From an uncultured Nitrospiraceae bacterium (GTDB taxonomy: Bacteria > Nitrospirota > Nitrospiria > Nitrospirales > Nitrospiraceae), in the NCBI GenBank assembly GCA_963730935.1, contig CAVSTP010000003.1, positions 672,001 to 736,000 on the forward strand: 64,000 bases of DNA. The letters are read 5' to 3'. The notes under the pieces are model-generated. The model saw only the letters and a program-made list of their open reading frames with translations. It ran no database searches and was not told the DNA's origin. A program made the translations under genes and the position numbers. How positions within the stretch are numbered: the stretch's first letter is position 1; the number at the start of each line of letters is the position of its first letter. Below are positions 10,685 through 53,487 of the stretch, in pieces.

Positions 10685-12149
10685 ATGAGGACGACAATGC
10701 AAGGACGGTTCAGACCTCCATGTGCCTACCTACTGCTTTTCGTAATGTCGGTCATGGTCGGATGCGAATATGTCCGTCCGACCCTCAACGCCCCCTTGGA
10801 AAAATGGGTGCCTGACGGCGGATATCGTTTCGTCAATGTCGCTCGGCCAGAGGCGGACAACACGGATAGTTTGCTCTTTGTCGCCGCCTTTTCGGGCGGC
10901 GGAACCCGCGCCTCAACCCTCGCATTTGGTGCTCTTCGAGAGCTCGCGCACCAGCAGATCGTTTGGGAAGGCAAACAGAAGCGGCTGCTCGATGAACTCG
11001 ACCTGATCCATGCCTTATCCGGAGGCACGTTTACCGGCGGCTACTATGCGCTGTATCGCGACCAAATCTTCCATGACTTTGAATACCGCTTTCTTCGGAA
11101 GGACTGGGAGACCGAATTGAGACACCGGGTATTTCGGTCCCCCAGTAATTGGGTTCGGCTGTGGTCGCCCTATTTCGGCCGGGCGCATCTGATGGCCGAA
11201 CTGCTGAATGAAGCGTTGTTCGATCATAAAACCTATGGGGACCTGGCTGCCCTCCAACAACGACCGATGCTCATCATTCACGCCTCGGACATGGCCACTT
11301 TGGCTCGGTTTGAATTTACGCAATTTCAGTTCGATTTCCTCTGTTCGGATCTTAGCCAATTGCCGATCGCTGACGCCTCTGCGGCCTCTGCTGCCCTTCC
11401 TCTTGTGCTGAGTCCGATCTCCTTAAAAAATTACGCAGGCAAGTGCGAGCTTTGAAGCGCCGGCCTGGTTGGCTCAAGCCAAGAGGGGAGGCCGAATCGG
11501 TGCACAGCGCGCCAACGAAATGCTCTCCTTCATGGACGCGGAAAAACGTCCTTATATTCATCTGCTCGATGGAGGCCTCTCGGACAATCTCGCGCTCCGA
11601 GGAATTATCGAAGGCAGCGGTCTGCAAGGATCATTTGAAAAGTTACTCGTTATGGCCCGTGTGAAGAATGTGAAGAAATTGGTGATTCTCGCGGTCAATG
11701 CCGAAACCTCTCCTGACGTCCTCGAATTCCGTAGCGACCATGTCCCCGTCATCTCCAAAGCGATGAGCTCCATGATCGATATTCCGATCAACCGGTATTC
11801 TTTTGATACGACCACGCTCATTAGTATGGGAGTGGAGAAGTGGAAAGCGGAGCTAAAAGCAAAACCAAGAGGTCCGGACAGTCCCTGGGCGAAGGATGCC
11901 GAGATTTATTTCATCAACGCCAGCTTGAGTGAAATAGAGGATCCCGACGAGCGTGTGTCGCTGATGAAAATCCCGACCACGCTGTATCTGAACGATGAGC
12001 AGATCGACCGGCTGGTGATGGCGGCATCCAAGCTGATCCGCGGCAACAAGGAGTTTCAGAGGCTGATGAAGGATATCAAGGCTCCCTCCGATGGTTCAGT
12101 GACAGCGCTTGAGAATGAAAAGCTTGATAAGGGGCAGACAGCTCACTAA
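10685..12149 (+). CDS. Patatin-like phospholipase (lipoprotein-type), frameshift near 11450
   Basis: FSGGGTRA, ALSGG, ASAALP in ORF 10685-11455; HLLDGGLSDNL in ORF 11469-12149. Confidence 0.85.
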
Positions 12150-12305
12150 TAGAGATGCAATCAATGGTTCAGGGGCCGGTCACCCGCCGCCGCTTTCCAT
12201 GCCCTGTTACTTTTGACAGTTCCAGGAGCCGGCGAATGGTGATATGCATGCCGCTCGCTCAAGCGGTAACCAGGGGTGTGTGACCTTCAACTGAAAGGAT
12301 GCGTC

Positions 12306-12782
12306 ATGACGATCAGGTTGATTTTGTGTGTATTTACCGGCATTTTCCTGCTGGCGGTTCCCGCCTTTGCTGAGCCGGCCTCAGATACGAACATGGAGAT
12401 CCTGAAGGAAAAACTTAAAGCCGACAAGAAACTGCTGATTGCCGGCAACATGGACCTTACCGACGCCGAAGCCAAACAGTTCTGGCCGCTGTACGACGAC
12501 TATCAAAAAGATCTTGAAGGCATCAACAAGCAGCTTGGTCAAACGATCAAGGAGTATGCGGATGCCTTCAACAAGGGGACGATTTCAAATGACACGGCAA
12601 AAAAGCTGCTCAACGAAGCCCTAACGGTCGAGGAGCAAGAGGTCAAGTTGAAACGCTCTTCTGCCGAGAAGCTTGGCAAGGTGCTGCCCGAGACTAAGGT
12701 TGCCCGCTATATCCAATTGGAAACCAAAATCCGGTCCCTGATCAAATTCGAGATGGCGCAACAAATTCCGCTGGTCTACTAG
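12306..12782 (+). CDS. Conserved periplasmic helical protein (Spy/CpxP-like)
   Basis: Signal peptide ending AFA; MDLTDAEAKQFWPLYDDYQ; KVARYIQLETKIR. Confidence 0.7.
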   Translation: MTIRLILCVFTGIFLLAVPAFAEPASDTNMEILKEKLKADKKLLIAGNMDLTDAEAKQFWPLYDDYQKDLEGINKQLGQTIKEYADAFNKGTISNDTAKKLLNEALTVEEQEVKLKRSSAEKLGKVLPETKVARYIQLETKIRSLIKFEMAQQIPLVY

Positions 12783-12803
12783 GCCCAAACTAGCATACGT
12801 TTG

Positions 12804-12838
12804 ACCGTGACCCCTCGCTCGATCGGAGGGGTCACGGC
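12804..12838 (+). terminator. Hairpin after the 12306..12782 gene (terminator or processing stem)
   Basis: ccgtgacccctc...gaggggtcacgg inverted repeat with a weak T tail. Confidence 0.45.
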
Positions 12839-12869
12839 GGTTTGTGTCGTGACGTCGGAGGGGAGCGAT

Positions 12870-13742
12870 ATGCCGGCAACTGATTCCAGCACTGTTCCAC
12901 TCATTCAACAGATATTTCATCCATCCGATTTCACTCCTGCCAGCGATAGTGCGTTTGTACACGCGCTGAAAATTGCACTGCTGGCGAAGGCCGAGTTGAC
13001 CATTCTCCATGTTTCGCCAAAACATGAATTAGAATGGACGGAATTCCCCGGCGTCCGATCGACGCTGGAACGCTGGAGACTCCTGCCCAAGAACAGTTCC
13101 CAGGCGGACGTGCTAAGGCTCGGCATCAACGTCAAGAAGGTTCAGGCCAAGCACGACGATCCCGTAACATCTGTCACGGGTTATTTGAGCACGCACAACA
13201 CAGATCTGATCGTCCTGGCCACCGACCAGCAGAAAGGACGGGTGCAGTGGCTGAGCCAGTCGATCGCCGCTCCCATCGCGCGCAAATCCCGTCAAATGAC
13301 ACTCTTCATGCCCAAAGGCGTTGAAGGATTCGTGTCAGCGCGGGATGGATCCATTTCGCTCACGAGCATCCTGATCCCCGTGGCGGAAACCCCGCCGGCG
13401 CAGCCGGCGATTCAGGCTGCCGCGCGAATGGCCAGCGGGCTGAATAGCTTATCGGGGGTATTCACAATTCTTCATGTCGGAGAAAAAACGGCTATGCCTG
13501 AGGTCCAGTTCACGGATGTGTCTGGTTGGAGTTGGAACACCGTGGTCCAGTCGGGCGACGTCGTCGACGTCATCAGCGAAACGGCAGCGGCAGTCAAAGC
13601 CGGACTGATCGTCCTGACGACAGAGGGGCGAAATGGGTTTCTCGATGCTCTACGTGGAAGCCATAGCGAACGAATTCTTCAACGAACTCCTTGTCCGCTG
13701 TTGGTGATTCCTGCGAGCGGCTTCATGGCCTCTGTGGTCTAG
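12870..13742 (+). CDS. Universal stress protein, two Usp domains
   Basis: IFHPSDFTPASDSAF...LTILHV; LIVLTTEGRNGFLDALRGSHSERILQRTPCPLLVIP. Confidence 0.9.
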   Translation: MPATDSSTVPLIQQIFHPSDFTPASDSAFVHALKIALLAKAELTILHVSPKHELEWTEFPGVRSTLERWRLLPKNSSQADVLRLGINVKKVQAKHDDPVTSVTGYLSTHNTDLIVLATDQQKGRVQWLSQSIAAPIARKSRQMTLFMPKGVEGFVSARDGSISLTSILIPVAETPPAQPAIQAAARMASGLNSLSGVFTILHVGEKTAMPEVQFTDVSGWSWNTVVQSGDVVDVISETAAAVKAGLIVLTTEGRNGFLDALRGSHSERILQRTPCPLLVIPASGFMASVV

Positions 13743-13788
13743 GGGCACTTGTCCGTTGGAAGCACTGGTAGTGAAGAACGCAGGGCGC

Positions 13789-14565
13789 ATGACTCGATCG
13801 GGAGCCCACATAAGTCTTGTGCTGATGATTGCGTTGGCGACGGGTTGCTCCAGTTCAATCTATGGCTGGCAGGTGCGAACCGGTTCTGCAGAGTTCGCGC
13901 CCTCGTTCGATCCGGCAAGACTTACACAAGAGCCAGCCGCAGTGTTCGGGGCTCTTACGATGCCAGGACTCCGCGGAAATGAGGTAGGTTTGGACTTCAT
14001 GCTCGCTCAAGTGCTGCATCGAGTCGCCCCTCAGATACAGATTGTCAGCCCGCAGCGCAGCATGTCGAAAATCAATGAACTGGGTCTGGCATCGGAATAC
14101 ACGCAGATGCGGGCGGATGCGGAGCAGAGCCATATTCTCAATCGTGAAACCTTGAAAAAGCTTGGAACGGCAATTGGCGTTCGGTATGTCTTCCAGCCCC
14201 GTTTGGCTGCTTTCACCCAAACCATGTACGATCGCTGGACTTTTCCCGGTTTGGGAGTGCTCCTCATGCAGGTTCGAACGAGCAACTTGCGAATGTCACT
14301 CCAGCTGTGGAATACGGAAACCGGTGAGCTGCTGTGGGCCTCGATAGCGGAAGGGACCATGCAGAGTGAAGCCGTGTCGAAGGATCCCGTCTATTTTGAG
14401 GATGCGGCACGGGTTGCGTTGGGCAGCATCGTCTCAGACTTTCTGAATCGCCAGACGGCGTCAACCTACACTCCACTGGATAAGCTCCTCGACCAATTAA
14501 TTCAGGTTCCGTCGCCGGAAGAAACAGCGAGGAGCACGAACACAAATCCCCCACGGAGTCAATAG
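13789..14565 (+). CDS. Hypothetical lipoprotein
   Basis: Lipobox LATGC; LQLWNTETGELLWAS resembles CsgG/LpoB-like folds; paralogue at 575..1361. Confidence 0.75.
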   Translation: MTRSGAHISLVLMIALATGCSSSIYGWQVRTGSAEFAPSFDPARLTQEPAAVFGALTMPGLRGNEVGLDFMLAQVLHRVAPQIQIVSPQRSMSKINELGLASEYTQMRADAEQSHILNRETLKKLGTAIGVRYVFQPRLAAFTQTMYDRWTFPGLGVLLMQVRTSNLRMSLQLWNTETGELLWASIAEGTMQSEAVSKDPVYFEDAARVALGSIVSDFLNRQTASTYTPLDKLLDQLIQVPSPEETARSTNTNPPRSQ

Positions 14566-14569
14566 ACCT

Positions 14570-15019
14570 ATGAAGGCCGTCCGGAAGCATCAATCGCGCA
14601 CATCTCTTCGATGGTCGATGGCAGTGCTGGCCCTCTTTTGCCTCGCAATGAGCCCTGCCTGTGAAACGACGGATCGTTCCGAGCCGCCGCAATGGGTGCA
14701 GTTCCCCATTACCGACGTCTCCGAGGTTGCGGGAAAGTGGGATGGCCTCATGCGTCGAATACCGCCCGATCGAAGGGACGACTGGGTCACGGTCGCCATC
14801 GGCCCTGATGGAAAATATGAGTTCAGTAGCCTCCGAACCATCGGAGTCTTCAGCGGCCATGGTGAGTTTGCCCTCAACGAGGGAAGATTAGTCTCGAAAT
14901 CCGAACGAGGGACCGTCGAAGCGGTCCTCTATCAGGACGGTACCCACCGCATGCTCAAGGCCAAAGGCCGCGCTGCCGATGGAATGGAGTACACAGCAGA
15001 GGTAAAACCAGCCAAATGA
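14570..15019 (+). CDS. Hypothetical lipoprotein/exported protein
   Basis: Signal-like N-terminus with Cys (SPAC); VAGKWDG; in operon context. Confidence 0.65.
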   Translation: MKAVRKHQSRTSLRWSMAVLALFCLAMSPACETTDRSEPPQWVQFPITDVSEVAGKWDGLMRRIPPDRRDDWVTVAIGPDGKYEFSSLRTIGVFSGHGEFALNEGRLVSKSERGTVEAVLYQDGTHRMLKAKGRAADGMEYTAEVKPAK

Positions 15020-15065
15020 ACGCTACCACACGATTCACCGGGTACGACCCATCGGGAGAACGACT

Positions 15066-16562
15066 ATGATGATTCGCGCTCTGACATTGGCTCGACAGCC
15101 TGTGAAGAATCTCTTTCTAGTGATACTGCTGGCAGCGGCAGCCGGCGCCTGCTCGATTAATCCTGTCAGCAACCTTCCAGAGGTCACTCTCATCACCGTC
15201 GAGCAAGAGAAGAAAATTGGCGAAGAGGAATCGAAGAAGGTTGAGCAGGAAATGGGCTTGCTCGATGACGCCGCTTTAACAAGTTATGTTGACGCGGTTG
15301 GCCAACGGCTTGTCAAGGAATCGCCACGACACGACCTGCCACACCAATTCCATGTCGTGGATATGGTCGAGCCGAACGCCTTTGCGCTTCCCGGCGGCTA
15401 TGTGTACGTCACGCGCGGGTTACTGGCGTTGGTCAATACTGAAGACGAGTTGGCCGGGGTAGTCGGCCATGAAATTGGGCACGTCGCTGCGAGGCATACA
15501 GTCCAGAGGATATCCCGCCAAGGGCCGTTCGCGCTCATCACCAATCTCGTGTCAGGCGTGACCGGCTTTTTTGTTCCGGTCGTCGGAAATATCGTCGGAG
15601 GCGTGGGCAATTTCGCCCAGAGTCTCGTGTTTTCTCCGTATAGCCGGTCCCAGGAGAGTCAGGCGGATGAAGTCGGACAGGAGATGGCGGCCAAGGCCGG
15701 CTGGGATCCTGTTGGACTCGCCACCTTTTTGGCCACCCTGGGGCGTGAGGAAGCGCTATTAAGCGACGGCCCACGCAAGCCCAGCTTCTTCGACTCCCAT
15801 CCTGCCACGCCGGATCGAGTCAAGAATACGACGAAGCACGCGAAGGGTCTCACACAGGCCAAGCGAGAACCAATTTCGCCTTCACATGACGCCTTCCTTG
15901 CGAGGCTTGACGGTCTCGTCGCGGGTCAGCGGGCCGCGAACGGCATTATTCAGGGATCGACCTACCGCCACCCTGATTTGAACTTTTTTGTCCAGTTCCC
16001 GGCCTCGTGGAATGTAGACAATACGCCCGTGCAATTGGCCGCGGCGCCGAAAGATGGGGGCACAGCAGTCGTCCTCCGTGCTGTCGCCCAGGGGAATGAT
16101 CCTCTGGACGGGGCCCGCGCCTTGGAAAAGGCCAGCAAGTCCACGCTCCCCAGAACGGAGACGACGACGATCAACGGGCTGCCTGCAGCCCGCACGCAGG
16201 TGGGCGACTCCAGGTTGAAGGTCGATCTCACGTGGATCGCCCATGGCGGCATGATTTACCAAATCGCGGGCATCGGGGAGACCAGGAATTTTGACACCGT
16301 TCGCCCGGTGTTCCAGACGGTCGTTGAGAGTTTCCGCCCTCTGTCTCCTGACGAGCGAAAGAACATCCGTGAAAAACGGATTCGTCTTGTAAAAGCGAAA
16401 GAAGGGGAAACGGTGAAGGAATTGACTGCCCGCTCGCAATCGGCCTGGAAGGCCAATCAAGTGGCCGTCGCGAATAATCTCGAGGAATCGGACCGTCTGC
16501 GGGAAGGACAGTTGATCAAAATCACCGTCGAAGAACCCTATGCCGGAAAACAACAGCGATGA
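15066..16562 (+). CDS. M48 zinc metalloprotease lipoprotein with C-terminal LysM-like domain
   Basis: AGACS lipobox, PNAFALPGGYVY, HEIGH, YSRSQESQAD, SHP; C-terminal VKAKEGETVKEL...NNL...LREGQLIKI. Confidence 0.9.
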   Translation: MMIRALTLARQPVKNLFLVILLAAAAGACSINPVSNLPEVTLITVEQEKKIGEEESKKVEQEMGLLDDAALTSYVDAVGQRLVKESPRHDLPHQFHVVDMVEPNAFALPGGYVYVTRGLLALVNTEDELAGVVGHEIGHVAARHTVQRISRQGPFALITNLVSGVTGFFVPVVGNIVGGVGNFAQSLVFSPYSRSQESQADEVGQEMAAKAGWDPVGLATFLATLGREEALLSDGPRKPSFFDSHPATPDRVKNTTKHAKGLTQAKREPISPSHDAFLARLDGLVAGQRAANGIIQGSTYRHPDLNFFVQFPASWNVDNTPVQLAAAPKDGGTAVVLRAVAQGNDPLDGARALEKASKSTLPRTETTTINGLPAARTQVGDSRLKVDLTWIAHGGMIYQIAGIGETRNFDTVRPVFQTVVESFRPLSPDERKNIREKRIRLVKAKEGETVKELTARSQSAWKANQVAVANNLEESDRLREGQLIKITVEEPYAGKQQR

Positions 16563-17107
16563 GCTCTTCTTCTGACTCGCATGCCTCGGCGGGAGTCTCC
16601 ACCGGTCCAGACGGCGGGCGCCGACGGTTTTTTCAGTTGGTCATCAAGGCGTCGGCCGGCTTGATCGGGCTCAGCCTTGCGGTTCCTTTGGTCGGCTACC
16701 TCGTCTCTCCGGCATTCAAGCGGCGGGCGCAGCAGTGGGTGGACGTGGCCTCTGCGGGCGAGCTGCCGGCCGGCGTTCCCAAACAGTTGGAGTACGTAGC
16801 GACTATTCAGGACGGCTATCTCGAAACCAAGACGCAAAAGGCCGTCTGGGCGGTGAAACAGGCCAACGGAGAAGTCACGGTGTTTTCTCCCATGTGCACT
16901 CACCTGGGGTGCGGCTATCACTGGGACGGCGCAGGGCAACAGTTCAAGTGTCCCTGCCATGGCAGCGTGTTCGACATCTCGGGACGTGTCGTTGCGGGAC
17001 CGGCGCCGCGGCCGCTGGATGCCTTGCCTACAAAGATCGAGAACGGTCGTCTCCTTGTGGTGTTCAAGGAGTTCAAGTCGGGAGTTGCGAAACAGCTCGA
17101 ACTGTAA
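16559..17107 (+). CDS. qcrA: Rieske 2Fe-2S subunit of a cytochrome bc-type complex
   Basis: Tat motif RRRFF plus TM helix, CTHLGC, CPCHGSVF, GPAPRPL. Confidence 0.92.
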   Translation: MSSSSDSHASAGVSTGPDGGRRRFFQLVIKASAGLIGLSLAVPLVGYLVSPAFKRRAQQWVDVASAGELPAGVPKQLEYVATIQDGYLETKTQKAVWAVKQANGEVTVFSPMCTHLGCGYHWDGAGQQFKCPCHGSVFDISGRVVAGPAPRPLDALPTKIENGRLLVVFKEFKSGVAKQLEL

Positions 17108-17145
17108 TGGGCAAGGTGAGTCACGCTTGTGCGTGAGGAGGGGCT

Positions 17146-18666
17146 ATGGATGAGGTCGACGGACGACGCGCCCGGAACGCCATGACCCCTGACGCGCGGT
17201 TGTTCAACCGATGGTTTCTCTGGACGCTGTGGTGTGCGCTGGCCATGACGTCGACCACCGTCATGACGGTCGATGCCGCTCCAGCGACGAAAGCGCACAG
17301 TGCGAAAGCCAAGGGCAGCTCGTCTCAAGGGAAATCGGCTGCCCAAAAGGGCGGCACGATTCCGGCCATCCTGACGGATGCTCCCAAAGTACCGCCGCGT
17401 ATCACGCGCCGTCACCCAAGCAAGGTCGTCGTCGAACTAGAGGTGAGCGAGGTCAACCTGTCGATGGCCGACGGCGTCGAATACACCTTCTGGACCTTCG
17501 GCGGAAAAGTTCCCGGAAAATTCATTCGAGTGCGGCAAGGCGATACGGTCGAATTCCACCTCATGAACCATCCCGACAGCCGGTTCCCTCATAACATCGA
17601 CCTCCATGCGGTGACCGGCCCAGGCGGTGGAGCTGCCAGCAGCAACACCGCACCAGGGCGCCGCACGCAATTCACGTTCAAGGCGCTCAATCCAGGGCTC
17701 TACGTCTATCACTGCGCGACGGCGCCGGTCGGCGAGCACGTCGCCAATGGCATGTACGGACTGATCCTGGTCGAGCCGCCAGGGGGATTGGCTCCAGTGG
17801 ATCGTGAGTATTATGTGGTGCAGAGCGATTTTTATACCAAAGGACCGCACCATGAGAAAGGTCATCAACCCTTCGACATGGAAAAAGCCATCGAGGAACA
17901 TCCCACCTATGTCGTGTTTAACGGCGCCGAAGGGTCCTTGTTGGGTGACAAGGCGCTCAAGGCCAAAGTCGGGGAACGTGTCCGTCTGTTTGTAGGAAAC
18001 GGCGGACCGAACCTCGTCTCCAGTTTCCATGTCATCGGCGAGATCTTCGACCGGGTCTATGCGGAAGCTGGTACCCGCTACTCTGAGCACATTCAAACCA
18101 CGCTTGTCCCGGCAGGAGGAGCAGCCATCGTGGAGTTTAAGGTGGAAGTTCCCGGTTCCTACAAACTCGTGGACCATTCCATTCTGCGCGCGTTCAACAA
18201 AGGGGCGCTTGGGGAGTTGAAGGTCGAAGGGCCGGAGGCAAAGGGAACTTATTCAGGGAAGCAGGCGGAATCGGACTATCAGCCGAAAGTCGGCGTGACC
18301 GGCAAGCCTGCCATGGCGGCCGCGACGATGACCTCCGGAGTGGGTGGTCAGCGCCTCTATCAAACCTACTGCATGGGATGTCACCAGGCCGAGGGACAGG
18401 GGATTCCGGGCACGTTTCCGCCACTCGCGAAATCGGACTACCTCTTGGCCGAAACCTCCCGATCAATCGACACGGTTGTCAACGGTCTTCACGGACCCAT
18501 TGAGGTGAACGGGCAACCGTACAATGGGACCATGCCGCCGATGGGGCATCTGAAGGATGAAGAGATTGCCGATATTTTGACTTACGTACGGAGTTCATGG
18601 GGCAACGAGGCCAATCCCATTTCGGCGGCGGAAGTGGCGGCCGTGCGGGCGAAGATTTCTCATTGA
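17146..18666 (+). CDS. nirK: Copper nitrite reductase (AniA-type) fused to C-terminal cytochrome c
   Basis: [37 protein letters not shown]-terminal CMGCH...FPPLA...YNGTMP. Confidence 0.95.
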
Positions 18667-18679
18667 AGAGGACCTGACC

Positions 18680-19030
18680 ATGAATCGGGGGCTGTTTGCA
18701 GCGTTATGTGCAGGACTGGTTCTTGGACTACTGTTGTGGGGCACCCGGGTCGTCGATGCCGGCGATCCTGCAAAGGGTAAGGCGCTCTATGAGAAGCACT
18801 GCCTCGTCTGTCACGGGCCGCAAGGCAAGGGAGACGGACCGGCAGGAAAAGCCCTCAAGCCGCCCGCCGCCGACTTCACGAGTCCGGAAAGTAAAAAGAA
18901 GCCCGAGGCCGACTTGAGGCAAGTGCTCGAAAACGGAAAACCTGGTACTGGCATGGGTCCGTGGAAGAGTCAGCTGCGCCAATCTGAGCTGAACGAACTG
19001 ATGGGCTATGTCATGACTCTGAGAGAATAG
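18680..19030 (+). CDS. Monoheme class I cytochrome c
   Basis: Signal peptide, CLVCHGPQGKGDG, GKPGTGMGPW. Confidence 0.92.
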   Translation: MNRGLFAALCAGLVLGLLLWGTRVVDAGDPAKGKALYEKHCLVCHGPQGKGDGPAGKALKPPAADFTSPESKKKPEADLRQVLENGKPGTGMGPWKSQLRQSELNELMGYVMTLRE

Positions 19031-19059
19031 CCGTTTATCAGTGGCAGGAGAAGCGTGCG

Positions 19060-20388
19060 ATGACATCCCGCATCTATGAGTGGCTGGATAGTCGGCTGAA
19101 GCTCAAGTCTCTCGAAAAAACATTGTTAGACGAGCCGATCCCCGGCGGAGCCAGCTGGATCTACGTCTTTGGCTCGGCCACGCTCTTCCTCTTTATTCTC
19201 CAAGCGGTCACCGGCATGTTCCTGGCCGTCTATTACGCGCCGACCCCGGACCATGCGTACGACAGTGTGCAGTTCATCGAGCAGCAGATTACGTTTGGCT
19301 GGTTCGTCCGCGGCCTTCACCACTGGGGTGCGTCAGGGATGGTGATCGCAGTCGGCCTGCACATGCTGCAAGTGTTTCTCTACGGCGCGTTCAAGCCGCC
19401 GCGCGAATTGATGTGGATGGTCGGCGTCGCATTGTTCTTCCTCGTCATGGGGTTCGCCTTTACCGGCTACCTGCTCCCCTGGGACCAAACTGCCTACTGG
19501 GCCACACAGGTGGGCATCAACATGGTGGGCACGGTTCCGCTCGTCGGTGACTTTCTGGTGAAGGTCATGCGTGGCGGAGAGACGCTGGGTGCTCTGACGC
19601 TCTCACGGTTTTTTGCGGTTCATGTGCTGTTTCTTCCGGCGCTCATTGTCACGGGGATTGTCGTGCATCTCTTCATCCTTCGGCGGGTCGGACCGGCCGG
19701 TCCCTGGGATGAACGCAAAGCGGCGGCCGTCCGTGAACCTTTTTATCCTCGCCAAGTCTACATGGATGCGGTGGTGATGGTGGCGGTCTTTCTTGTCCTG
19801 GTCTTCTTGGCGACCTTCGTACCGTTTCCGCTGGCCGACAAAGCCAACCCCGCGGATACCAGTTTTGTGCCGGTGCCGGAATGGTATTTTCTCTTCTATT
19901 ATGAGTTACTGAAGCACGTCCATGGTCCGCTGGAACCGTTGGCCACGTGGGTACTACCGGCAATTGCGATTGCAGTGATGCTGCTCTGGCCGTTTCTCGA
20001 CTGGCAAAAAAATGTCCGGGCTCCGGCCTCGCGCCCGGTGGGTATGGCCGTCGTCGCCGTGTTTCTCATCACAGTCTTTTCTCTCCTAGGCATCTCGTTG
20101 AAAAGCCTATACGGCATGAAGCGAACGGATCCGGCGATTGTGCACGGTCAGTCGCTGTATACGAATCTCGGTTGCTTGGGGTGTCATCGCATCCATGGCA
20201 ACGGTGGCGCGATCGGACCGGATCTCTCTTATGAAGGGGACGCCCGTCCGGATCGGGAATGGCACATCAAGCATTTCCATGATCCGCAATCGGTGTCGCC
20301 GGGATCGATCATGCCGAAATTTCCATTGACCGAGGCGGAACTGCAAGATCTGACGAGTTACATACTGAGTCTCAAGCGGACGACGTAA
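19060..20388 (+). CDS. qcrB: Cytochrome b (unsplit) fused to C-terminal cytochrome c
   Basis: RGLHHWGAS...LHMLQ, FTGYLLPWDQ, FFAVH...VVHL, Qo motif PEWY, then CLGCH...GPDLS...SIMP. Confidence 0.93.
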   Translation: MTSRIYEWLDSRLKLKSLEKTLLDEPIPGGASWIYVFGSATLFLFILQAVTGMFLAVYYAPTPDHAYDSVQFIEQQITFGWFVRGLHHWGASGMVIAVGLHMLQVFLYGAFKPPRELMWMVGVALFFLVMGFAFTGYLLPWDQTAYWATQVGINMVGTVPLVGDFLVKVMRGGETLGALTLSRFFAVHVLFLPALIVTGIVVHLFILRRVGPAGPWDERKAAAVREPFYPRQVYMDAVVMVAVFLVLVFLATFVPFPLADKANPADTSFVPVPEWYFLFYYELLKHVHGPLEPLATWVLPAIAIAVMLLWPFLDWQKNVRAPASRPVGMAVVAVFLITVFSLLGISLKSLYGMKRTDPAIVHGQSLYTNLGCLGCHRIHGNGGAIGPDLSYEGDARPDREWHIKHFHDPQSVSPGSIMPKFPLTEAELQDLTSYILSLKRTT

Positions 20389-20472
20389 TATCCATGCTAG
20401 GGCAAGCCCTGCTTGACGATGTCGGGAGGGCAATTGTATAAGAAACACCCTTCCTCGTTTGCCGGAGGACGT

Positions 20473-40364: not shown

Positions 40365-41567
40365 TTACCTGGGCGAATCCATTCTTCTTCGGACGAAGGG
40401 TGAATCCCAACGACTCCACAGAATTCCAAGAGCATTAAGCCATGGCGTCATGATCATCGTGGCCGCGACGACAATGATGCCAGTGGAGAATTGAACCTGC
40501 GTTTCTGTGCCGAGGGCCAATAACTCGCCAAGTGCCACGAAAGCAAATTCGCTGCATTGAGCGAGGAGAAAGGACATCCGAGCCGCCGCACCGTGTTGCA
40601 TGCTCATCGCTCGGGCGGCCAGATATAGCACGACAATCTTGAACGCGATGATCGCAAGGACGTGCAGAAGAATTATTGCGACATGTCCGCGCAGTACGCT
40701 GAGATCAACCGTCAGTCCTACGGAGACAAAAAACAGTCCCAGCAAGAGATTCTTGAGTGGCAGAACTTCCTCTTCCAATCGATGTCTGTACTCCGAGCTG
40801 CCCAGCGACACACCCGCGATGAACGCTCCCATGGCCATCGAAAGACCCGTGGAAGAGGCGAGCCATGCGCCGCCGAACAGGGCAATAAAAATGATTGCCG
40901 TAAAGGTTTCGCCGAAGTTTGGGGCCACCGCGAGGCGCAGGAGTCGGGGCCAGACGTACCGGCCAACGACGAAGATGATGATCATGGCCCCTGCGGCGTA
41001 CAGGACATCCCCCCATACGAAGCTCTCTGCTGATCCAGTCCCGGCAAACACCGGCAGCAAGGCGAGGATCGGTACGACGGTCAAGTCCTGAAATAGAAGC
41101 AGGGCTAAAGTCGCCTGTCCATATTCTTGCTCCAGTTCGCCTTTTCCTTTCAGGAGCTGGAGCACAAGCGCTGTAGATGAGTTTGACGCGACTAGTCCGA
41201 AAAGAAGCGCAAGAGACCAGGAAGGCGCGAAGAAGCGCCAATAAAACATCATCGCCAGACCGGTTCCAATCACTTGCGCGGCTCCAAGGCCGAAGGCATA
41301 TCGTCGCAGCGACCAGATTTTCCGAGGATCGAGCTCGAGTCCGATCACAAAGAGAAAGAAGACCACGCCCAGTTGCGAAATGTCGGTCAGGCGTCCAATC
41401 TGGCTGGTATTGAGGACATGTGATGATCCCAAAATGATTCCGGAGAGTAACAGCCCGAGTTCCGGACCGATCCCAAGCCGCCGAGCGAGGGGAATCATCA
41501 CGGCACTGATGGTGAGCAGCAACGTGACGGCCACTACTATATCCGGCAATGAGATATAGGGGTTCAA
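40365..41567 (-). CDS. CPA2 cation:proton antiporter (KefB/KefC-like membrane domain, no KTN domain)
   Basis: LGVVFFLFVIGLEL, SSTALV, LLFQDL, MGAFIAGV, LLGLFFVSVG, QCSEFAFV. Confidence 0.88.
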   Translation of the reverse strand: MNPYISLPDIVVAVTLLLTISAVMIPLARRLGIGPELGLLLSGIILGSSHVLNTSQIGRLTDISQLGVVFFLFVIGLELDPRKIWSLRRYAFGLGAAQVIGTGLAMMFYWRFFAPSWSLALLFGLVASNSSTALVLQLLKGKGELEQEYGQATLALLLFQDLTVVPILALLPVFAGTGSAESFVWGDVLYAAGAMIIIFVVGRYVWPRLLRLAVAPNFGETFTAIIFIALFGGAWLASSTGLSMAMGAFIAGVSLGSSEYRHRLEEEVLPLKNLLLGLFFVSVGLTVDLSVLRGHVAIILLHVLAIIAFKIVVLYLAARAMSMQHGAAARMSFLLAQCSEFAFVALGELLALGTETQVQFSTGIIVVAATMIMTPWLNALGILWSRWDSPFVRRRMDSPR

Positions 41568-41676
41568 GCTGAGCCTCCCAATTCGACCACGCGTGTCATC
41601 GCGGATTTCGTATTGCTATGCCGACCGATCGTCAGGACAAGTGCACCTTGGACGCCTCAGACCCTGTGGCTCATCG

Positions 41677-42552
41677 CTATTTCCGCTGGCGCCCCGCAAT
41701 GCGCGACTCGGCCGAAGCCCAGCCGGCGTCGAACGGATGCCCGGGGCTGTCGATGTCGATGACCAGCGGTGCGTGATCCGAGGGCAACGGTTTTCCCTTC
41801 CTCGCCTCGCGATCGATCTCGGCCCAGACCACACGGTGTTGTAAGGTGGTGGTCACCAATAAGTGGTCGATGCGCATGCCGATGTTTTTGTGAAAATTGC
41901 CTGCGCGATAATCCCACCAGGTGTAACGCCCCGGTTCCGGGTGATGCAATCGGAATGCATCGACGAATCCCGCGCTCGAAAGCCCTGCAAAAGCTTGCCG
42001 CTCGCGCTCGGAAACGTGTGTCCCGCCTTGACAAGCACTGGGGTCCCACACATCGGCATCTTCGGGCGCCACATTGAAATCACCGCCGATGACGGCCGGT
42101 GTATCCGAAGTGACGGCCCGACTGATCCAGCGAGCCAGCCTGTCGAACCACACGAGCTTGGCTTCATAAAACGGTGAATCCACGAGCCGGCCGTTCGGCG
42201 CGTACACGCAGATGATGCGCACGCCGCCGCATTCGGCAGCGAGCATCCTGGCCTCAGCCATCGGTTCATCGTCACCGGTTTCAGACGTACGGGCCGGCCG
42301 TAATGGCTCTCCAAAATTTGTGATGACGCTGTCGATGCCGCACCGACTCGCGATCGCAACGCCGTTCCATCGACCCTCACCGTGGTGCACCAGCTCGTAT
42401 CCGGCCTGCTTGAAGGGTTCGACAGGCGCATCCGCGTCCCCCAGCTTCGTTTCCTGCATCAGAAGCACGTCCGGCTTCGCCCGATCCAGCCACCACATGA
42501 CCTTCTCAAGGCGAGCCTTCAGCGAGTTGACATTCCAAGTGGCAATCCGCAT
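41677..42552 (-). CDS. xth: Exodeoxyribonuclease III
   Basis: MRIATWNVNSL, QETK, YAPNG, GDFNVA, YTWWDYR, MRIDH, SDHAP. Confidence 0.96.
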   Translation of the reverse strand: MRIATWNVNSLKARLEKVMWWLDRAKPDVLLMQETKLGDADAPVEPFKQAGYELVHHGEGRWNGVAIASRCGIDSVITNFGEPLRPARTSETGDDEPMAEARMLAAECGGVRIICVYAPNGRLVDSPFYEAKLVWFDRLARWISRAVTSDTPAVIGGDFNVAPEDADVWDPSACQGGTHVSERERQAFAGLSSAGFVDAFRLHHPEPGRYTWWDYRAGNFHKNIGMRIDHLLVTTTLQHRVVWAEIDREARKGKPLPSDHAPLVIDIDSPGHPFDAGWASAESRIAGRQRK

Positions 42553-42594
42553 GGCTAATGATTCTTCCATTCGGGCCGCGGCGTATGGCGGCAG

Positions 42595-43314
42595 TCACTT
42601 AGCATCATGGAAGATGACGCCGAGCGTAAAGCGTGAACCAGAGTGAATCGTGCTCACGCCGTGCCGCATGTTGACCCGGTAATAGCCCCGGCTTCCTTGG
42701 ACGGGACGGTGCCGCGTCGCAAAGATCACGATTTCTCCCTGCTGAGGGGCCAGGACTTCACCGCGTGATTGTGCCCGCGGTCGCTGTTCCACGAGCAGAA
42801 ATTCACCACCGACAAAATCGCGGTCAGGGCGACTGAGAAAGGCGGTGAGCTGCAGCGGGAAAGCGACGGCTCCATAGATATCCTGATGAAGGCAGTTATA
42901 ATCCCCCGCACCGTAACGAAGTAACAACGGTGTGGGCTTCGTCTGTCCGTTCCGACGACAGACGGCGAGCAGTTTCTCGTGACTCGGCGGAAACGTATCC
43001 CTCTGTCCCAATGCCTTTGTCCAGGCGTTGGCGATCACCGCAAGACGAGGATAGATGTGTTCGCGCAGCGTTTGGACCAGCGACGGCAAGGGATAGGTGA
43101 AGTATTTGTACTCCCCCTCGCCAAACCGAAAGCGCTTCATGTCGATCCGGCTTCGGAACAATTGGTCCTTGCCGTACAGGGCGACAAGAGCCTCGCACTC
43201 GTCGGCCGTCAGCAACGGGTCGGTTTTGGCATAACCCCGCTCCCATAACGATGCTTCAATGGCCTTCCAGTCTAGCTGGACCAGTCGGTCTTGGATGTTG
43301 ACCACTTCAGCCAT
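42595..43314 (-). CDS. 2OG-Fe(II) oxygenase (DUF2086 type, often linked to alkylation repair)
   Basis: YNCLHQD, GGEF..VEQRPRAQSR, RHGVS, GVIFHDA. Confidence 0.9.
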   Translation of the reverse strand: MAEVVNIQDRLVQLDWKAIEASLWERGYAKTDPLLTADECEALVALYGKDQLFRSRIDMKRFRFGEGEYKYFTYPLPSLVQTLREHIYPRLAVIANAWTKALGQRDTFPPSHEKLLAVCRRNGQTKPTPLLLRYGAGDYNCLHQDIYGAVAFPLQLTAFLSRPDRDFVGGEFLLVEQRPRAQSRGEVLAPQQGEIVIFATRHRPVQGSRGYYRVNMRHGVSTIHSGSRFTLGVIFHDAK

Positions 43315-43353
43315 TTCGTCCTAAGTAATGGATATAATTCGACACCATCCCTA

Positions 43354-43381
43354 TGTCGATTTTGGCCATCGAGAACGACTA
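43354..43381 (+). promoter_or_regulatory. ECF42-type promoter upstream of the DGPF/YciI gene
   Basis: TGTCGA-N16-CGACTA; the same motif occurs at 44514. Confidence 0.7.
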
Positions 43382-43426
43382 TCTGTCAAGAACATCGTTT
43401 CACAGTCAAATTGGAGGGTCGAAGCC

Positions 43427-43789
43427 ATGAAATATCTGCTCCTGTGTTGCCACGAAGAGAAGAAATGGGACTCCATGTCCAAAAGCGACTGCGACGCCGT
43501 GATGGAAGAGACCATGGCCTATGTCGAGGCGCTGAAGAAGAGTGGTCAGCTTCTTGCGGTAGAGCAACTCGACCCCATAAAGACGGCCATAAGCGTGAGA
43601 ATCCGGAGCGGGAAGTTGTCCGTGACCGACGGTCCCTATGCTGAAACGAAAGAGCAGCTCGGTGGCTTTTTCCTGATCAGCGCCCGAGATCTGAACGAGG
43701 CGATCCAGGTGGCCTCGAAGTTTCCGTCGGTGCGCTTCGGAACCATGGAGGTGCGGCCGGTCAGGGAAATTCCCGGCAGCGGCCACTAG
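43427..43789 (+). CDS. YciI-related DGPF-domain protein
   Basis: VTDGPYAETKEQLGGFFLI, EVRPV; GGAGG RBS. Confidence 0.92.
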   Translation: MKYLLLCCHEEKKWDSMSKSDCDAVMEETMAYVEALKKSGQLLAVEQLDPIKTAISVRIRSGKLSVTDGPYAETKEQLGGFFLISARDLNEAIQVASKFPSVRFGTMEVRPVREIPGSGH

Positions 43790-43885
43790 TCGGCGCGGCG
43801 TTGATGCTATGAATCACGTTTGGCTGTTGCTATACTGCCGGACTCCGATTTCCCGCCAGTCGTCGGTTTCAAACCGGAGGTGCAG

Positions 43886-44419
43886 ATGCTGCCGTTCAGT
43901 CTTGCCATGATCCTGATCGCGTTGCTCATATCGCCTGCCGACGCGAAAGAAAAATCGGCTTGCTCATTGCTGACCTCGAGCGATATTGAGGCTGTCGTTG
44001 GCGGGAAAGTGAGCGCGAGCCAGCCGATTCATTTTGATGACATTCCGAGTGGCAAGAAGACCGTGAAAGCGTACGGCTGCCTGTGGGGCGTCTCTACTAT
44101 AGGGCAAGTCTCCATCAGTTGGTTTGAAGGACCCCTCACCGATGACGAGATCGCCCAGTTGATCAAGATGACCAAGAACAATCCGGGAACCGAGGACCTT
44201 AAAAAGGCCAACTATAAAGAAACAGCAAAAGATTTTCCCCAAGCCTCGTGCTCAAGCTATACACCCCCGGCCGGTGCCAAAGATGGCATGCCCATGTCCA
44301 CCTGTGCCGGTGGAGCAAAGGGGCATGGTCTTACGCTCACGTTCATGAGCCCCAGCAAGACACTCACGATTGATCAGACGAAGGCCCTCTTGGACAAGGC
44401 CGCTTCGCACGTCCACTGA
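43886..44419 (+). CDS. Hypothetical exported Cys-containing protein
   Basis: GGAGG RBS, signal peptide ending ADA, ACSLLTSSDI. Confidence 0.75.
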   Translation: MLPFSLAMILIALLISPADAKEKSACSLLTSSDIEAVVGGKVSASQPIHFDDIPSGKKTVKAYGCLWGVSTIGQVSISWFEGPLTDDEIAQLIKMTKNNPGTEDLKKANYKETAKDFPQASCSSYTPPAGAKDGMPMSTCAGGAKGHGLTLTFMSPSKTLTIDQTKALLDKAASHVH

Positions 44420-44513
44420 GGCTGCACCTGGTCAATGCTATCCTGCCGAGTTTGGCGAGAGCGCTCGTCGATCGATTCCAACCACCGCTTGAACACTTAG
44501 CCTTTGAGGGCGG

Positions 44514-44541
44514 TGTCGATTTCTGGAATCTCGTTCGACTA
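44514..44541 (+). promoter_or_regulatory. ECF42-type promoter upstream of the SRPBCC gene
   Basis: TGTCGA-N16-CGACTA. Confidence 0.7.
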
Positions 44542-44601
44542 CAAGATACGAGGTTACGTCGTAATCGTGCTGGGCATCAACTAGAAAAAGGAGAAATAGC
44601 C

Positions 44602-45048
44602 GTGGGAACTAATACCATTCGACTCCATCGCGTGCTTCGTGCAACACCGGAACGGATCTATCGGGCATTTCTCGATGCAGATGCCATGGTGAAGTGGCTG
44701 CCGCCAAATGGATTTACGGGCAAGGTGCATCACATGGATGCCAAAGTCGGCGGCACTTTTAAGATGTCGTTTACGAATTTTACGACAGGCAAGAGCCACT
44801 CCTTTGGCGGTAAGTATCTTGAACTCGTGCCCCATGAGCGCCTGCGGTATACGGACAACTTCGACGACCCGAACCTGCCTGGAGAAATTCACGTGACGGT
44901 CACCTTGAAGAAAGTCTCTTGCGGAACGGAAGTTCATATCGTGCAAGAAGGCGTGCCTGATGTGATTCCGGCAGAGGCCTGCTACCTCGGCTGGCAAGAA
45001 TCGCTCATTCTTCTTGGGAAACTCGTCGAAGCGGAGATCCCAGACTAA
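44602..45048 (+). CDS. SRPBCC/AHSA1-family protein
   Basis: LHRVLRATPERIYRAFLD, KWLPP, CYLGWQESL; GTG start with AAGGAG RBS. Confidence 0.9.
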   Translation: MGTNTIRLHRVLRATPERIYRAFLDADAMVKWLPPNGFTGKVHHMDAKVGGTFKMSFTNFTTGKSHSFGGKYLELVPHERLRYTDNFDDPNLPGEIHVTVTLKKVSCGTEVHIVQEGVPDVIPAEACYLGWQESLILLGKLVEAEIPD

Positions 45049-45117
45049 TATCGCCGGCTGAGGAATAGAAAGGGGGTCGCAAGTCTCTCTTGCTGACGGG
45101 GTAGTAAGGAGGGCTGC

Positions 45118-45762
45118 ATGAGCAAGGTGAAAGTCGCGGCGTTTACGGTGTCGCTCGATGGATTTGGTGCGGGGCCCCGACAGGATTTGCAGAATCCGCT
45201 AGGAGTTCGTGGGGAAGAACTGCATTCCTGGTTTGTAGACACGGACGTCTTTAAGAAAATGAACGATCAAGGCGAAGGGTCGCATGGCATCGACAATGAT
45301 TTTGCCGCGCAGTCAATGGACAATATGGGCGCCTGGATTTTGGGGCGGAATATGTTCGGGCCGGTGCGCGGTCCCTGGAAAGACGAGTCCTGGAAGGGCT
45401 GGTGGGGGGATAATCCGCCGTACCACACGCCGGTATTTGTGCTCACGCATCACTCACGAGCGCCCCTGACGATGGAAGGCGGCACGACCTTTTACTTTGT
45501 GACCGATGGCATCGAGTCGGCCTTAAAGAAAGCGAAAGCGGCGGCCAAAGGCAAAGACGTTCGGATTGGTGGCGGCGTTGCCACGATTCGTCAGTACCTG
45601 ATCGCCGGCCAGATCGATGAGATCCACCTAGCCATTTCGCCGATTTTGTTGGGAGAAGGGGAGCATCTCTTTGCCGGCCTCAATCTCCACGCTCTCGGGT
45701 TCACATCCATCAAAACCGTCGCCAGTGAAAAGGCAACGCATGTTCTGATGAAAAAAGGATGA
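45118..45762 (+). CDS. RibD C-terminal/dihydrofolate-reductase-like protein
   Basis: SLDGFGAGP, GRNMF, VFVLTH, IGGGVATIRQYL, PILLGEG. Confidence 0.9.
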   Translation: MSKVKVAAFTVSLDGFGAGPRQDLQNPLGVRGEELHSWFVDTDVFKKMNDQGEGSHGIDNDFAAQSMDNMGAWILGRNMFGPVRGPWKDESWKGWWGDNPPYHTPVFVLTHHSRAPLTMEGGTTFYFVTDGIESALKKAKAAAKGKDVRIGGGVATIRQYLIAGQIDEIHLAISPILLGEGEHLFAGLNLHALGFTSIKTVASEKATHVLMKKG

Positions 45763-45842
45763 ACGGGTCGCCTCCGCTGCATAAGTCCTTCCGAAGAGAC
45801 CGATGCCGGCCTGCGATCGGCTCATGACGACCTTTTCTCGTT

Positions 45843-46535
45843 TTAACGGGTAATAAGCCCATCGGTGATGCCGTAGGCGAGGGCATAGCAAATGAAGATT
45901 CCTATGCCGCCGGCGATACCTGCCAGGACGGAGTCCCTCCACCCGCCGTTGGTCACGTGTCTTGCCATCAGCGCAAAAATAATCGCGATGCCGAATTCGC
46001 CAAGGATGATGTAGTAGGGCGTGTTGGACAGCATCCGGCAATTGCTATATACCCACCAGTTGATTCGGCGTGCCATTTCTTCATAATAAGGGATGTTGAT
46101 CGCACCCAAGACACCAATCGCGACCAGTCCCCACCTGTCGAACCGATTCCAAAGCCACAGACCGATATAGCCGAACTGCACAGCGACGACTTCCCAGGCA
46201 AAAGGCATCCAGAGGGGAGAGCGCCAAATCATGGGTCCGCCGCCGATGGCATAGTCCAACGTCTTGGTGTAATCCACCAGCCACGCATCGGCAATCAACT
46301 CAGCAAATCCTACGGTAAGGCCGAAGACAATGAATCGCGCCAGGACCCAGTCACGGCGCAAGATGATGAAACCGGCCAGCAGGGAATTATCGATGATATT
46401 AAGCGCGACTCCGGTTTTCCAATCCGACCACGGTGCGAGGCTCAGCAATGCGACGGCGACAACGTTGATGGCGATAGTAGCCAAGATGATTTTGAGACGG
46501 GCATCAGCAAGCGAGCTTTCAGCGGTCAGTTCCAT
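45843..46535 (-). CDS. Hypothetical multi-pass membrane protein
   Basis: About seven hydrophobic segments; ELIADAWLV, SPLWMPFAW, PYYEEMA. Confidence 0.75.
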   Translation of the reverse strand: MELTAESSLADARLKIILATIAINVVAVALLSLAPWSDWKTGVALNIIDNSLLAGFIILRRDWVLARFIVFGLTVGFAELIADAWLVDYTKTLDYAIGGGPMIWRSPLWMPFAWEVVAVQFGYIGLWLWNRFDRWGLVAIGVLGAINIPYYEEMARRINWWVYSNCRMLSNTPYYIILGEFGIAIIFALMARHVTNGGWRDSVLAGIAGGIGIFICYALAYGITDGLITR

Positions 46536-46710
46536 GCCTGATCTACGTGTTGGAGCATGCGCTGGATGTTTCGATGGGGTTGGATCAGAAATGCACGCAT
46601 TTCTCTTCCAACCCGTTGACGCTTGTATTCACGAAGAGTACCCTTACCTGATTTCTCCTCAGGTGATCAACCGAATCTGACTGCCTTTTCGGTTACCCCA
46701 AGAGTATTCC

Positions 46711-47322
46711 ATGAATGAAACGATCGTGGCGGCGATCATAGGTGGGGCGGCCGGCGTTTTGCCCGTTGTAGTGACAAGAATCTTTGGGCGGCTCGAGAGT
46801 CGAAATCAGACGAGGCAGCAGGTGCAGGCGCTTGATCTTGCCAAAAAGCGAGTGGACTTCTTGCAATCTTGGATGGGCGCCCGGAAGAGCTGCCTCCCGC
46901 GAGAGACCGTTGATGTCTCAATTCAGGAAGCCTTCAAGGAGCTGGATGAAATCCGCTTATCCCTTAGGCGCGTCCTTGAGAAGACGGTAAGTCACGCGAG
47001 AAGTCATGAAGAGCGCCCATTCATACAGCGTCTGTTGTTGGCCTATAAGCCGAAGAGGATGTCTGGTTGGTGGTGGCGGGTGGCCTATTACACATGGACC
47101 GGTGCCATTGCGGCGAGCATTCTCGACGGGGTCATTCGACGGGACTTCTTTACGGGGAGAGACGATGATGGAAGCTTTTCGGTGGCTGTACTTATCGGTG
47201 AAATAATCGGCGCGGTCTTGCTGATTCTTCCTTCTGTATTCTTTCATCGACGCGCCGTGCGATCTGATATCGCTCAAATGAAAGGTGCCGCTAAAGATCA
47301 GACAGGACAAGTTGCGGGATGA
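46711..47322 (+). CDS. Hypothetical membrane protein
   Basis: 203-aa ORF with three hydrophobic segments. Confidence 0.6.
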   Translation: MNETIVAAIIGGAAGVLPVVVTRIFGRLESRNQTRQQVQALDLAKKRVDFLQSWMGARKSCLPRETVDVSIQEAFKELDEIRLSLRRVLEKTVSHARSHEERPFIQRLLLAYKPKRMSGWWWRVAYYTWTGAIAASILDGVIRRDFFTGRDDDGSFSVAVLIGEIIGAVLLILPSVFFHRRAVRSDIAQMKGAAKDQTGQVAG

Positions 47323-47360
47323 CCGGCTTCCTGAGGATCGTAGTGAGTCTGTGTGAGGCT

Positions 47361-53191: not shown

Positions 53192-53487
53192 ATGCACGCC
53201 TTACCATGCACGCCTTACGTAGTTCGCCTCTACATTTGTTCCACCACAATCGCCACTGCCTCTCCGCCGCCGATACACAGACCTGGCTAACCCTTGGCTG
53301 GCGCCGGTCGTTGCCATCCAGCCGTATCAAGTACTGGCGCGAGCAAAGCACAGCCCTGTCAAAAGTGACAGTTCCTCTTCTAGTGCTTTTCTGCCATAGT
53401 CCCCTTCGTAAAACTCTGGCAAGTGGAGGCTGATATTCACCCTCGAGTTGGCCTCTCAGCGCCAACTTTTCACAAAAGGAGCTAATC

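Follow-up and report, generated by a model that had tools for sequence, protein, structure and literature searches.

The locus and its closest described systems

Known systems in which a Rieske/cytochrome b pair or a copper nitrite reductase resembles parts of the locus reported here come from several lineages. In Nitrospira, such a pair is encoded together with the periplasmic nitrite reductase ONR, for which it is the proposed electron donor; ONR makes ammonium for assimilation, and its gene follows an intact Rieske-cytochrome b pair (PMC12342949, PMC6606698, PMC5767232). In denitrifiers, electrons pass from the bc1 complex through cytochrome c or azurin to the copper nitrite reductase NirK (PMC13324648). 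Two questions about NirK are stated as open in print, namely its role in Nitrospira (PMC6606698, where it is called undetermined, and PMC3578206) and the in vivo electron donor of the haem-tethered NirKs (PMC13324648), whose haem, according to the same source, could accept electrons from complex III or membrane cytochromes. Here we describe a four-gene locus in a 64,000-nucleotide stretch of an uncultured Nitrospiraceae genome (the genome is G000; the whole stretch, G000:C3:672001-736000, is called the window below) in which a gene for a haem-tailed NirK and one for a small cytochrome c lie between the genes for a Rieske protein and a cytochrome b with a fused haem c. We give about an even chance to the following reading: this nirK is an acquired gene that, in one Nitrospira genus, separates the Rieske gene of an accessory complex III from its cytochrome b-c gene, is probably transcribed together with both, and serves as an optional, loosely coupled electron outlet.

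The order Rieske, nirK-cytochrome c, cytochrome c, cytochrome b-cytochrome c, with gaps of 38, 13 and 29 bp, had been given in an initial annotation of the window, and the open reading frames (ORFs), all on the forward strand, bear it out (Table 1). The copper ligands, haem-b histidines, PEWY and CxxCH motifs listed there were likewise recovered intact in alignments. The module consists of known parts on a design that has a precedent in the same genus, the ONR locus; it is conserved, but not obligate. It differs from ONR in that its enzyme is a one-electron, nitric oxide (NO)-forming copper enzyme encoded between Rieske and cytochrome b, and in the cytochrome b itself (34% identity). The predicted chemistry and direction are those of the denitrifier chain, but the module brings the three steps together in one locus, and the genome yielded no NO reductase. 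A further likeness, drawn from architecture and description and not from sequence, is to CIII_2 of N. moscoviensis, a Rieske protein and a fused cytochrome b/c present besides the core complex III; its third gene encodes a dihaem cytochrome c, whereas in the module nirK and a monohaem cytochrome c gene separate Rieske from cytochrome b (PMC6606698).

The module NirK scores above the curated cut-off of TIGR02376 (357.4 bits versus 296.3) and matches RpNiR of Ralstonia pickettii (PDB 3ziy) with an E value of 2e-184, the alignment taking in copper core and haem domain alike. The type 1 copper (T1Cu) ligands are H149/C190/H198/M203 and the type 2 copper (T2Cu) ligands H154/H189/H344; the catalytic pair is D152 and H295, the gatekeeper Y378 lies in the linker, and the haem domain carries CxxCH409 (C409, C412, H413) and M463. 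In 41 of 41 aligned homologues there is no variation in these ligands, in the catalytic Asp/His or in the gatekeeper Tyr. Architecture, all copper and haem ligands and the Asp/His pair are common to RpNiR and to the 2zoo enzyme (PhNiR). Y378 corresponds to the gatekeeper Tyr323 of RpNiR, S376 to Ser321, Q317 to Gln262 and F350 to Phe295. Differences from RpNiR are a linker that, in the nearest subclade, is short by about 10 residues, and the replacement of Met92 by Phe147 and of Met142 by Glu197. G000 also carries a second, two-domain nirK, whose product is 39% identical to the module NirK and falls on a separate branch of the tree. The module NirK is an acquired enzyme of the RpNiR type and not the usual Nitrospira NirK. 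Its signal peptide was judged by eye only, and hydropathy revealed no membrane anchor.

The Rieske protein has both cluster-binding boxes (CTHLGC113 and CPCHGS131) and a twin-arginine anchor; in the second box, CPCHGSVF, the Ser is retained and the Tyr is replaced by Phe. Cytochrome b has the haem-b ligands H87/H101/H188/H203 with b6-type spacing, PEWY273 and CxxCH372, and the best PDB matches of its N-terminal half are to cytochrome b6. With this b6-like half, seven predicted helices and a haem c fused to the part equivalent to subunit IV, it resembles the Bacillus QcrABC and cytochrome b6f complexes, but it is an unsplit single chain of 442 amino acids and lacks the haem-ci cysteine, having Val35 at the b6 Cys position (PMC3475470). 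By standard topology the fused haem domain faces the periplasm; it is mildly acidic to neutral in most rows of the cytochrome b clade described below. The small cytochrome c is basic, with an isoelectric point (pI) of 9.0 in the window and of 8.3-9.6 in 14 of 14 orthologues, and the NirK haem domain is acidic (pI 5.4-6.3 in 14 of 15). This pairing, though a crude criterion, fits a shuttle role, and we regard the small cytochrome as a candidate shuttle that is dispensable.

The host genome is 99.9% complete. It holds two 1148/429-amino-acid pairs of type II molybdoenzyme subunits of the size of nitrite oxidoreductase (NXR), which presumably are NXR, in agreement with the nitrite-oxidising host supposed in the initial annotation. 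A comammox host was considered and rejected, as AMO gave no match in G000 while three of the four other family members did match. Three Rieske/cytochrome b pairs are encoded: the core pair lies among bd-like oxidases, a second adjoins an eight-haem cytochrome, and the third is the module pair, which alone has a fused haem c. The absence of an NO reductase, proposed for the window, can be extended to the genome: no match to the haem-copper family PF00115 was found in G000, and hence neither cNor nor qNor, while control matches were obtained in 9 of 14. Hcp and PF00042 globins were also not found in G000, with controls matched; the search did not extend to flavodiiron proteins or truncated globins. 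Two side observations belong here. At L002:8026-11044 (G000:C3:554-557 kb; L-numbers are locus labels) Rieske, cytochrome b and an eight-CxxCH cytochrome lie in a region for nitrogen assimilation and correspond to the published ONR locus. One bd-like oxidase match, at G000:C4:1584658-1585396, falls into two pieces in different frames.

A full-text literature search, with most subscription papers outside its reach, returned no description of nirK inside a bc operon. The available text of the strain papers PMC5767232 and PMC7522533 contains no mention of Rieske, bc1 or complex III and mentions nirK once, in a figure legend of one of them; the portions of PMC6349771, PMC7193043 and PMC8756737 hold nothing bearing on the arrangement.

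Distribution and history of the arrangement

Haem-tailed NirK was found in 14 of the 33 genomes of the genus (7 of the 18 high-quality ones) and, in a sample of the phylum, in 2 of 301 genomes, both of the host genus. It lies beside Rieske and/or cytochrome b-c in 13 of 13 relatives, 11 with both flanks and two cut by contig ends. Metagenomes gave the same picture: in a set of 80 loci, the best among the matches listed, all five clade members (core identity at least 86%) lie beside bc genes and none of the 75 other three-domain NirKs does, 36 of these 75 loci having at least 1 kb on both sides. The module NirK was not seen away from bc genes, although the outer flanks vary between relatives. 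A one-off insertion, which the initial annotation had allowed for, does not describe this conserved synteny. The orthologue of a cultured strain (P0080, source name Nitrospira sp. KM1) is 73% identical. As a separate observation, Nitrospirales have a third NirK lineage, present in two further families of the order (L017-L028); its identity is 55-61%, and the match ends before the haem domain.

To place these loci, a cytochrome b tree was made from the best 80 of 264 genome loci together with the window, L041 and L042, and a careful tree from 43 rows; L044 and L045 were left out on account of frameshifts in many neighbouring genes, which are likely assembly errors. In the 43-row tree all nirK inserts fall within one clade of 28 rows (support 100/99). 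Twelve of its rows have nirK and the small cytochrome c (two of them without the Rieske side), five have nirK only, four, including L071, the small cytochrome only, five neither, and two are uninformative. Outside the clade nirK occupies the Rieske-cytochrome b slot in none of 54 informative loci, and the bc pair stands alone in all 54. The bc-linked NirKs themselves, together with four proteins of unknown context, form one branch (SH-aLRT 99). This branch lies within the three-domain NirKs known from other bacteria, a long way from the usual Nitrospira copy. Some of the branch's neighbours are named by their sources as Verrucomicrobiae and Methylomirabilota, which does not fix the donor. Distances in the NirK and cytochrome b trees correlate (r 0.82, 14 loci), and dN/dS ratios of 0.03-0.13 between the window and six relatives (two values saturated) indicate purifying selection on all four genes.

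The simplest reading of the trees is that a single gain was followed by repeated loss. In L138 and L139, nirK directly precedes cytochrome b-c and the 3' end of the small cytochrome c gene is left as a scar. In L057, whose cytochrome b is 91% identical and whose outer neighbours are the same, Rieske and cytochrome b are separated by 32 bp with no nirK. A 'truncated nirK' in L046/L062 was rejected, since a stretch of Ns marks a gap in the assembly there. Natural controls are provided by relatives that have nirK and relatives that lack it, and an orthologue is at hand in the cultured strain.

Several neighbours of the bc genes in relatives are recorded here in their own right. A sulfite-oxidase-family molybdoenzyme gene diverges from the Rieske gene in four loci (L041:7368-8459, L063:4664-5692, L067:5814-6887, L071:5865-6920), and ORFs of about 960 amino acids with several cytochrome c-like domains lie downstream of the same bc pair at L099:9356-12229 and L111:12795-15683. 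Genes gnd/zwf flank the module in L061 and L074, and an ORF with a zwf domain lies downstream in L072, which counts in favour of the electron outlet proposed here.

An upstream palindrome and a putative regulon

The run of genes that contains the module is headed by a palindrome, CTGTCA-N4-TGACAG, with one mismatch, and a second site lies at 53356-53371 of the window. The site before the same first gene of the run is kept in L044, L045, L056 and L057. With up to two mismatches it stands directly before Rieske in 7 of 73 loci, all in the clade, and altogether it occurs 22 times in 29 clade loci and not at all in 55 loci outside. Across G000 there are 16 perfect sites, as against 0-1 per shuffle, and 17 with one mismatch, as against 5-13 (five shuffles); this number of perfect sites is the highest, and G030 has as many. 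When the 33 sites were read in both directions, TAnnnT, a -10-like hexamer, matched 14 times at exactly 23 nt, compared with 0-3 times at other offsets, and this enrichment suggests that the palindrome sits at an activator position overlapping the -35 element. The palindrome is specific to the genus: perfect sites are present in 25 of the 32 other genomes of the genus and in 2 of 28 outside genomes, once each; the reversed control gave one site in total.

Neighbours of the G000 sites include genes for BON, Ysc84 and DegP-like proteins, catalase, hemerythrin, transaldolase-6PGD, glucosidase and acetate kinase, and many without a Pfam label. On these labels the palindrome likely marks a regulon for stress and storage carbon. 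Since it stands before stress and sugar-catabolism genes as well as before the module, it points to an electron outlet used in stress or starvation. Consensus patterns for FNR, NsrR and sigma-54 upstream of Rieske gave only two-mismatch matches within coding DNA. The palindrome resembles a lux box, and a quorum-sensing regulon based on acyl-homoserine lactones was therefore considered; it was rejected, with no LuxI match and no LuxR above the cut-off in G000.

Other sites are noted as such. At L074:490-9326 a palindrome with one mismatch stands before a co-directional set of genes that lacks nirK and comprises cytochrome bd oxidase, gnd, zwf, Rieske, small cytochrome c and cytochrome b-c; a sulfite-oxidase-family homologue in G000 (L221:1043-2089) adjoins a perfect palindrome; and a pair of PAS kinase and NarL-type regulator adjoining a site (L222:315-2114; G000:C3:637.8-639.6 kb) is a candidate regulator only.

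Proposed electron flow through the module, and the surrounding run

An optional outlet of this kind would work as follows. A regulator binding the palindrome would switch the run on under stress or starvation, when storage carbon would be oxidised and would reduce methyl-plastoquinone. The bc pair would oxidise the quinol by a Q-cycle and reduce its own fused periplasmic haem c, from which the basic small cytochrome, or another periplasmic cytochrome where this one has been lost, would carry the electron to the haem of NirK and on to T1Cu and T2Cu. Nitrite would be reduced to NO and, because no NO reductase is present, the NO would be released or act on a terminal oxidase. Contacts between NirK and its donors would be transient, as in denitrifiers. 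The published potentials are +57 to +59 mV for the methyl-plastoquinone of Nitrospira and +430 mV for nitrate/nitrite (PMC12324825), and +290, +266 and +255 mV for the haem, T1Cu and T2Cu of RpNiR (PMC13324648); by these values electrons would fall about 0.2 V from quinol to NirK, while those from nitrite oxidation would have to move uphill to its haem. The wire from quinol to NirK proposed in the initial annotation is partly supported: forward flow is downhill, purifying selection acts on NirK, and its tree follows that of the bc genes. A fixed, obligate link is not supported.

A number of observations weigh against even this loosely coupled outlet. The potentials are borrowed from other species, and sustained flux would poison a cell in which no NO reductase was found. 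Of the 26 informative clade loci, 9 lack nirK and 10 the small cytochrome, with independent losses, and a single clade of the 18 nirK-bearing rows (one with its upstream side cut off) is rejected (p-AU 1.7e-119; at least five changes). Congruent trees are expected for any adjoining genes. The slot between Rieske and cytochrome b-c is filled by a protoglobin-GGDEF gene (a globin-coupled diguanylate cyclase) at L088:6825-7931, L097:6885-7991 and L131:5236-6336, loci that belong to three distinct branches of this bc family, with a GGDEF-like remnant in L104, and by a gene for a four-helix bundle in L115; the slot is tolerant of inserts. Pfam labels are the basis for reading the regulon as one of stress, and many neighbours lack them. 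The palindrome also precedes the nirK-less modules L057 and L069, and with up to one mismatch it was not found in the nirK-bearing L041, L062 and L068 despite kilobases of upstream DNA. Because nirK and the small cytochrome have been lost independently and unrelated genes occupy the slot, an obligate quinol:nitrite oxidoreductase is not supported.

Much of this would also be expected if the genes shared only their regulation, nirK having settled in a tolerant slot behind a useful promoter and NirK drawing on the general periplasmic cytochrome c pool. We consider this possible, although on balance rather unlikely. It would account for the unrelated genes in the slot at four loci, for the repeated loss of nirK, including the clean 32 bp gap of L057, for the six other homologues of the small cytochrome c in G000, and for the presence of a peptidase and an efflux pump in the same run. 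It does not account for the fact that, despite changing outer flanks, NirK is always beside bc genes, in every relative and in every metagenome clade member among the matches listed. More doubtful still is a stronger form of the favoured outlet, in which the module is a stress-induced quinol:nitrite oxidoreductase whose spare complex III has NirK as its own, dedicated terminal partner, nitrite being run backwards to NO as a proton-pumping survival respiration within a genus-wide, undescribed regulon. If that were so, the haem-tethered class would gain its first in vivo donor named from genomes.

A stable supercomplex, the strong form of the reading in the initial annotation, with the NirK trimer docked on the bc complex and no soluble carrier between them, seems to us improbable. 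It would suit the five clade loci, and L138 and L139, in which nirK directly precedes cytochrome b-c without the small cytochrome, and also four clade-specific NirK residues (F147, E197, N167 and E357), which do not vary among 32 of 32 clade-like sequences, whereas eight of nine more distant ones have other residues there. Against it stand the lack of a detectable membrane anchor on NirK, the alignment of cytochrome b-c without insertions between nirK-bearing and nirK-less loci, the repeated loss of nirK, and the description of complexes between NirK and its donors as transient (PMC13324648). Reverse flow, also offered in the initial annotation, is very improbable; NirK would here turn NO into nitrite, and the bc complex would drive the electrons uphill to quinone for CO2 fixation. 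In its favour, Nitrospira requires a reverse complex III (PMC12324825) and NO has been speculated to be an intermediate in Nitrobacter (PMC3578206). Against it, the redox potentials are unfavourable, and an NO source large enough to match is lacking. G000 has the core complex III beside bd-like oxidases, the copy with the higher expression in N. moscoviensis (PMC6606698). The module NirK is missing from most of the phylum, and the shared palindrome adjoins catabolic genes.

With the loosely coupled outlet as the favoured reading, the locus names a candidate donor chain, its direction and a candidate inducing condition. If it is correct, some nitrite oxidisers of soil and water would be conditional sources of NO. 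The module leaves the usual, genus-wide NirK unexplained.

The four genes are embedded in a co-directional run of about 12276-26512. Their small gaps, from which a tight module had been proposed, are real; however, they do not set the four genes apart, because the run with the peptidase and the RND pump, which the initial annotation omitted, is equally tight throughout. The M48 peptidase and Rieske ORFs overlap by 4 bp, and the RND adaptor ORF starts 24 bp after cytochrome b, measured from its first possible start. The upstream part of the run is conserved in the closest relatives only, and the RND genes are a frequent but not constant neighbour of the module. Scans for sigma-70 promoters and for terminators gave chance-level counts (6 versus 8.0 and 18 versus 20.9). 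Contigs from four soil/rhizosphere RNA runs (three studies) cover the module patchily and at low depth, as they do the control stretch 40500-48000.

Table 1. The module and the features of the run around it (positions in the window)
Feature	Position	Strand	Details
Palindrome CTGTCA-N4-TGACAG, one mismatch	12204..12219	.	heads the module run; likely activator site
Upstream part of the run: hypothetical, Usp, two hypotheticals, M48 peptidase	12276..16562	+	
Rieske [2Fe-2S] protein	16559..17107	+	182 aa ORF, PF00355
nirK, three-domain copper nitrite reductase with C-terminal haem c (RpNiR/PhNiR type)	17146..18666	+	506 aa ORF
Small basic monohaem cytochrome c, N-terminal hydrophobic signal	18680..19030	+	116 aa ORF
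Cytochrome b with fused C-terminal monohaem c	19060..20388	+	442 aa ORF
RND efflux adaptor, pump and outer-membrane factor, continuing the run	20413..26512	+	

Two further features lie outside the run. A patatin-like gene at 10685-12149 is split into two ORFs here (256 and 226 amino acids) and is a single ORF of 468-485 amino acids in L036/L056, L042, L045 and L057. A complete rRNA operon (16S, two tRNAs, 23S, 5S) lies at 27738-33054 of the window.

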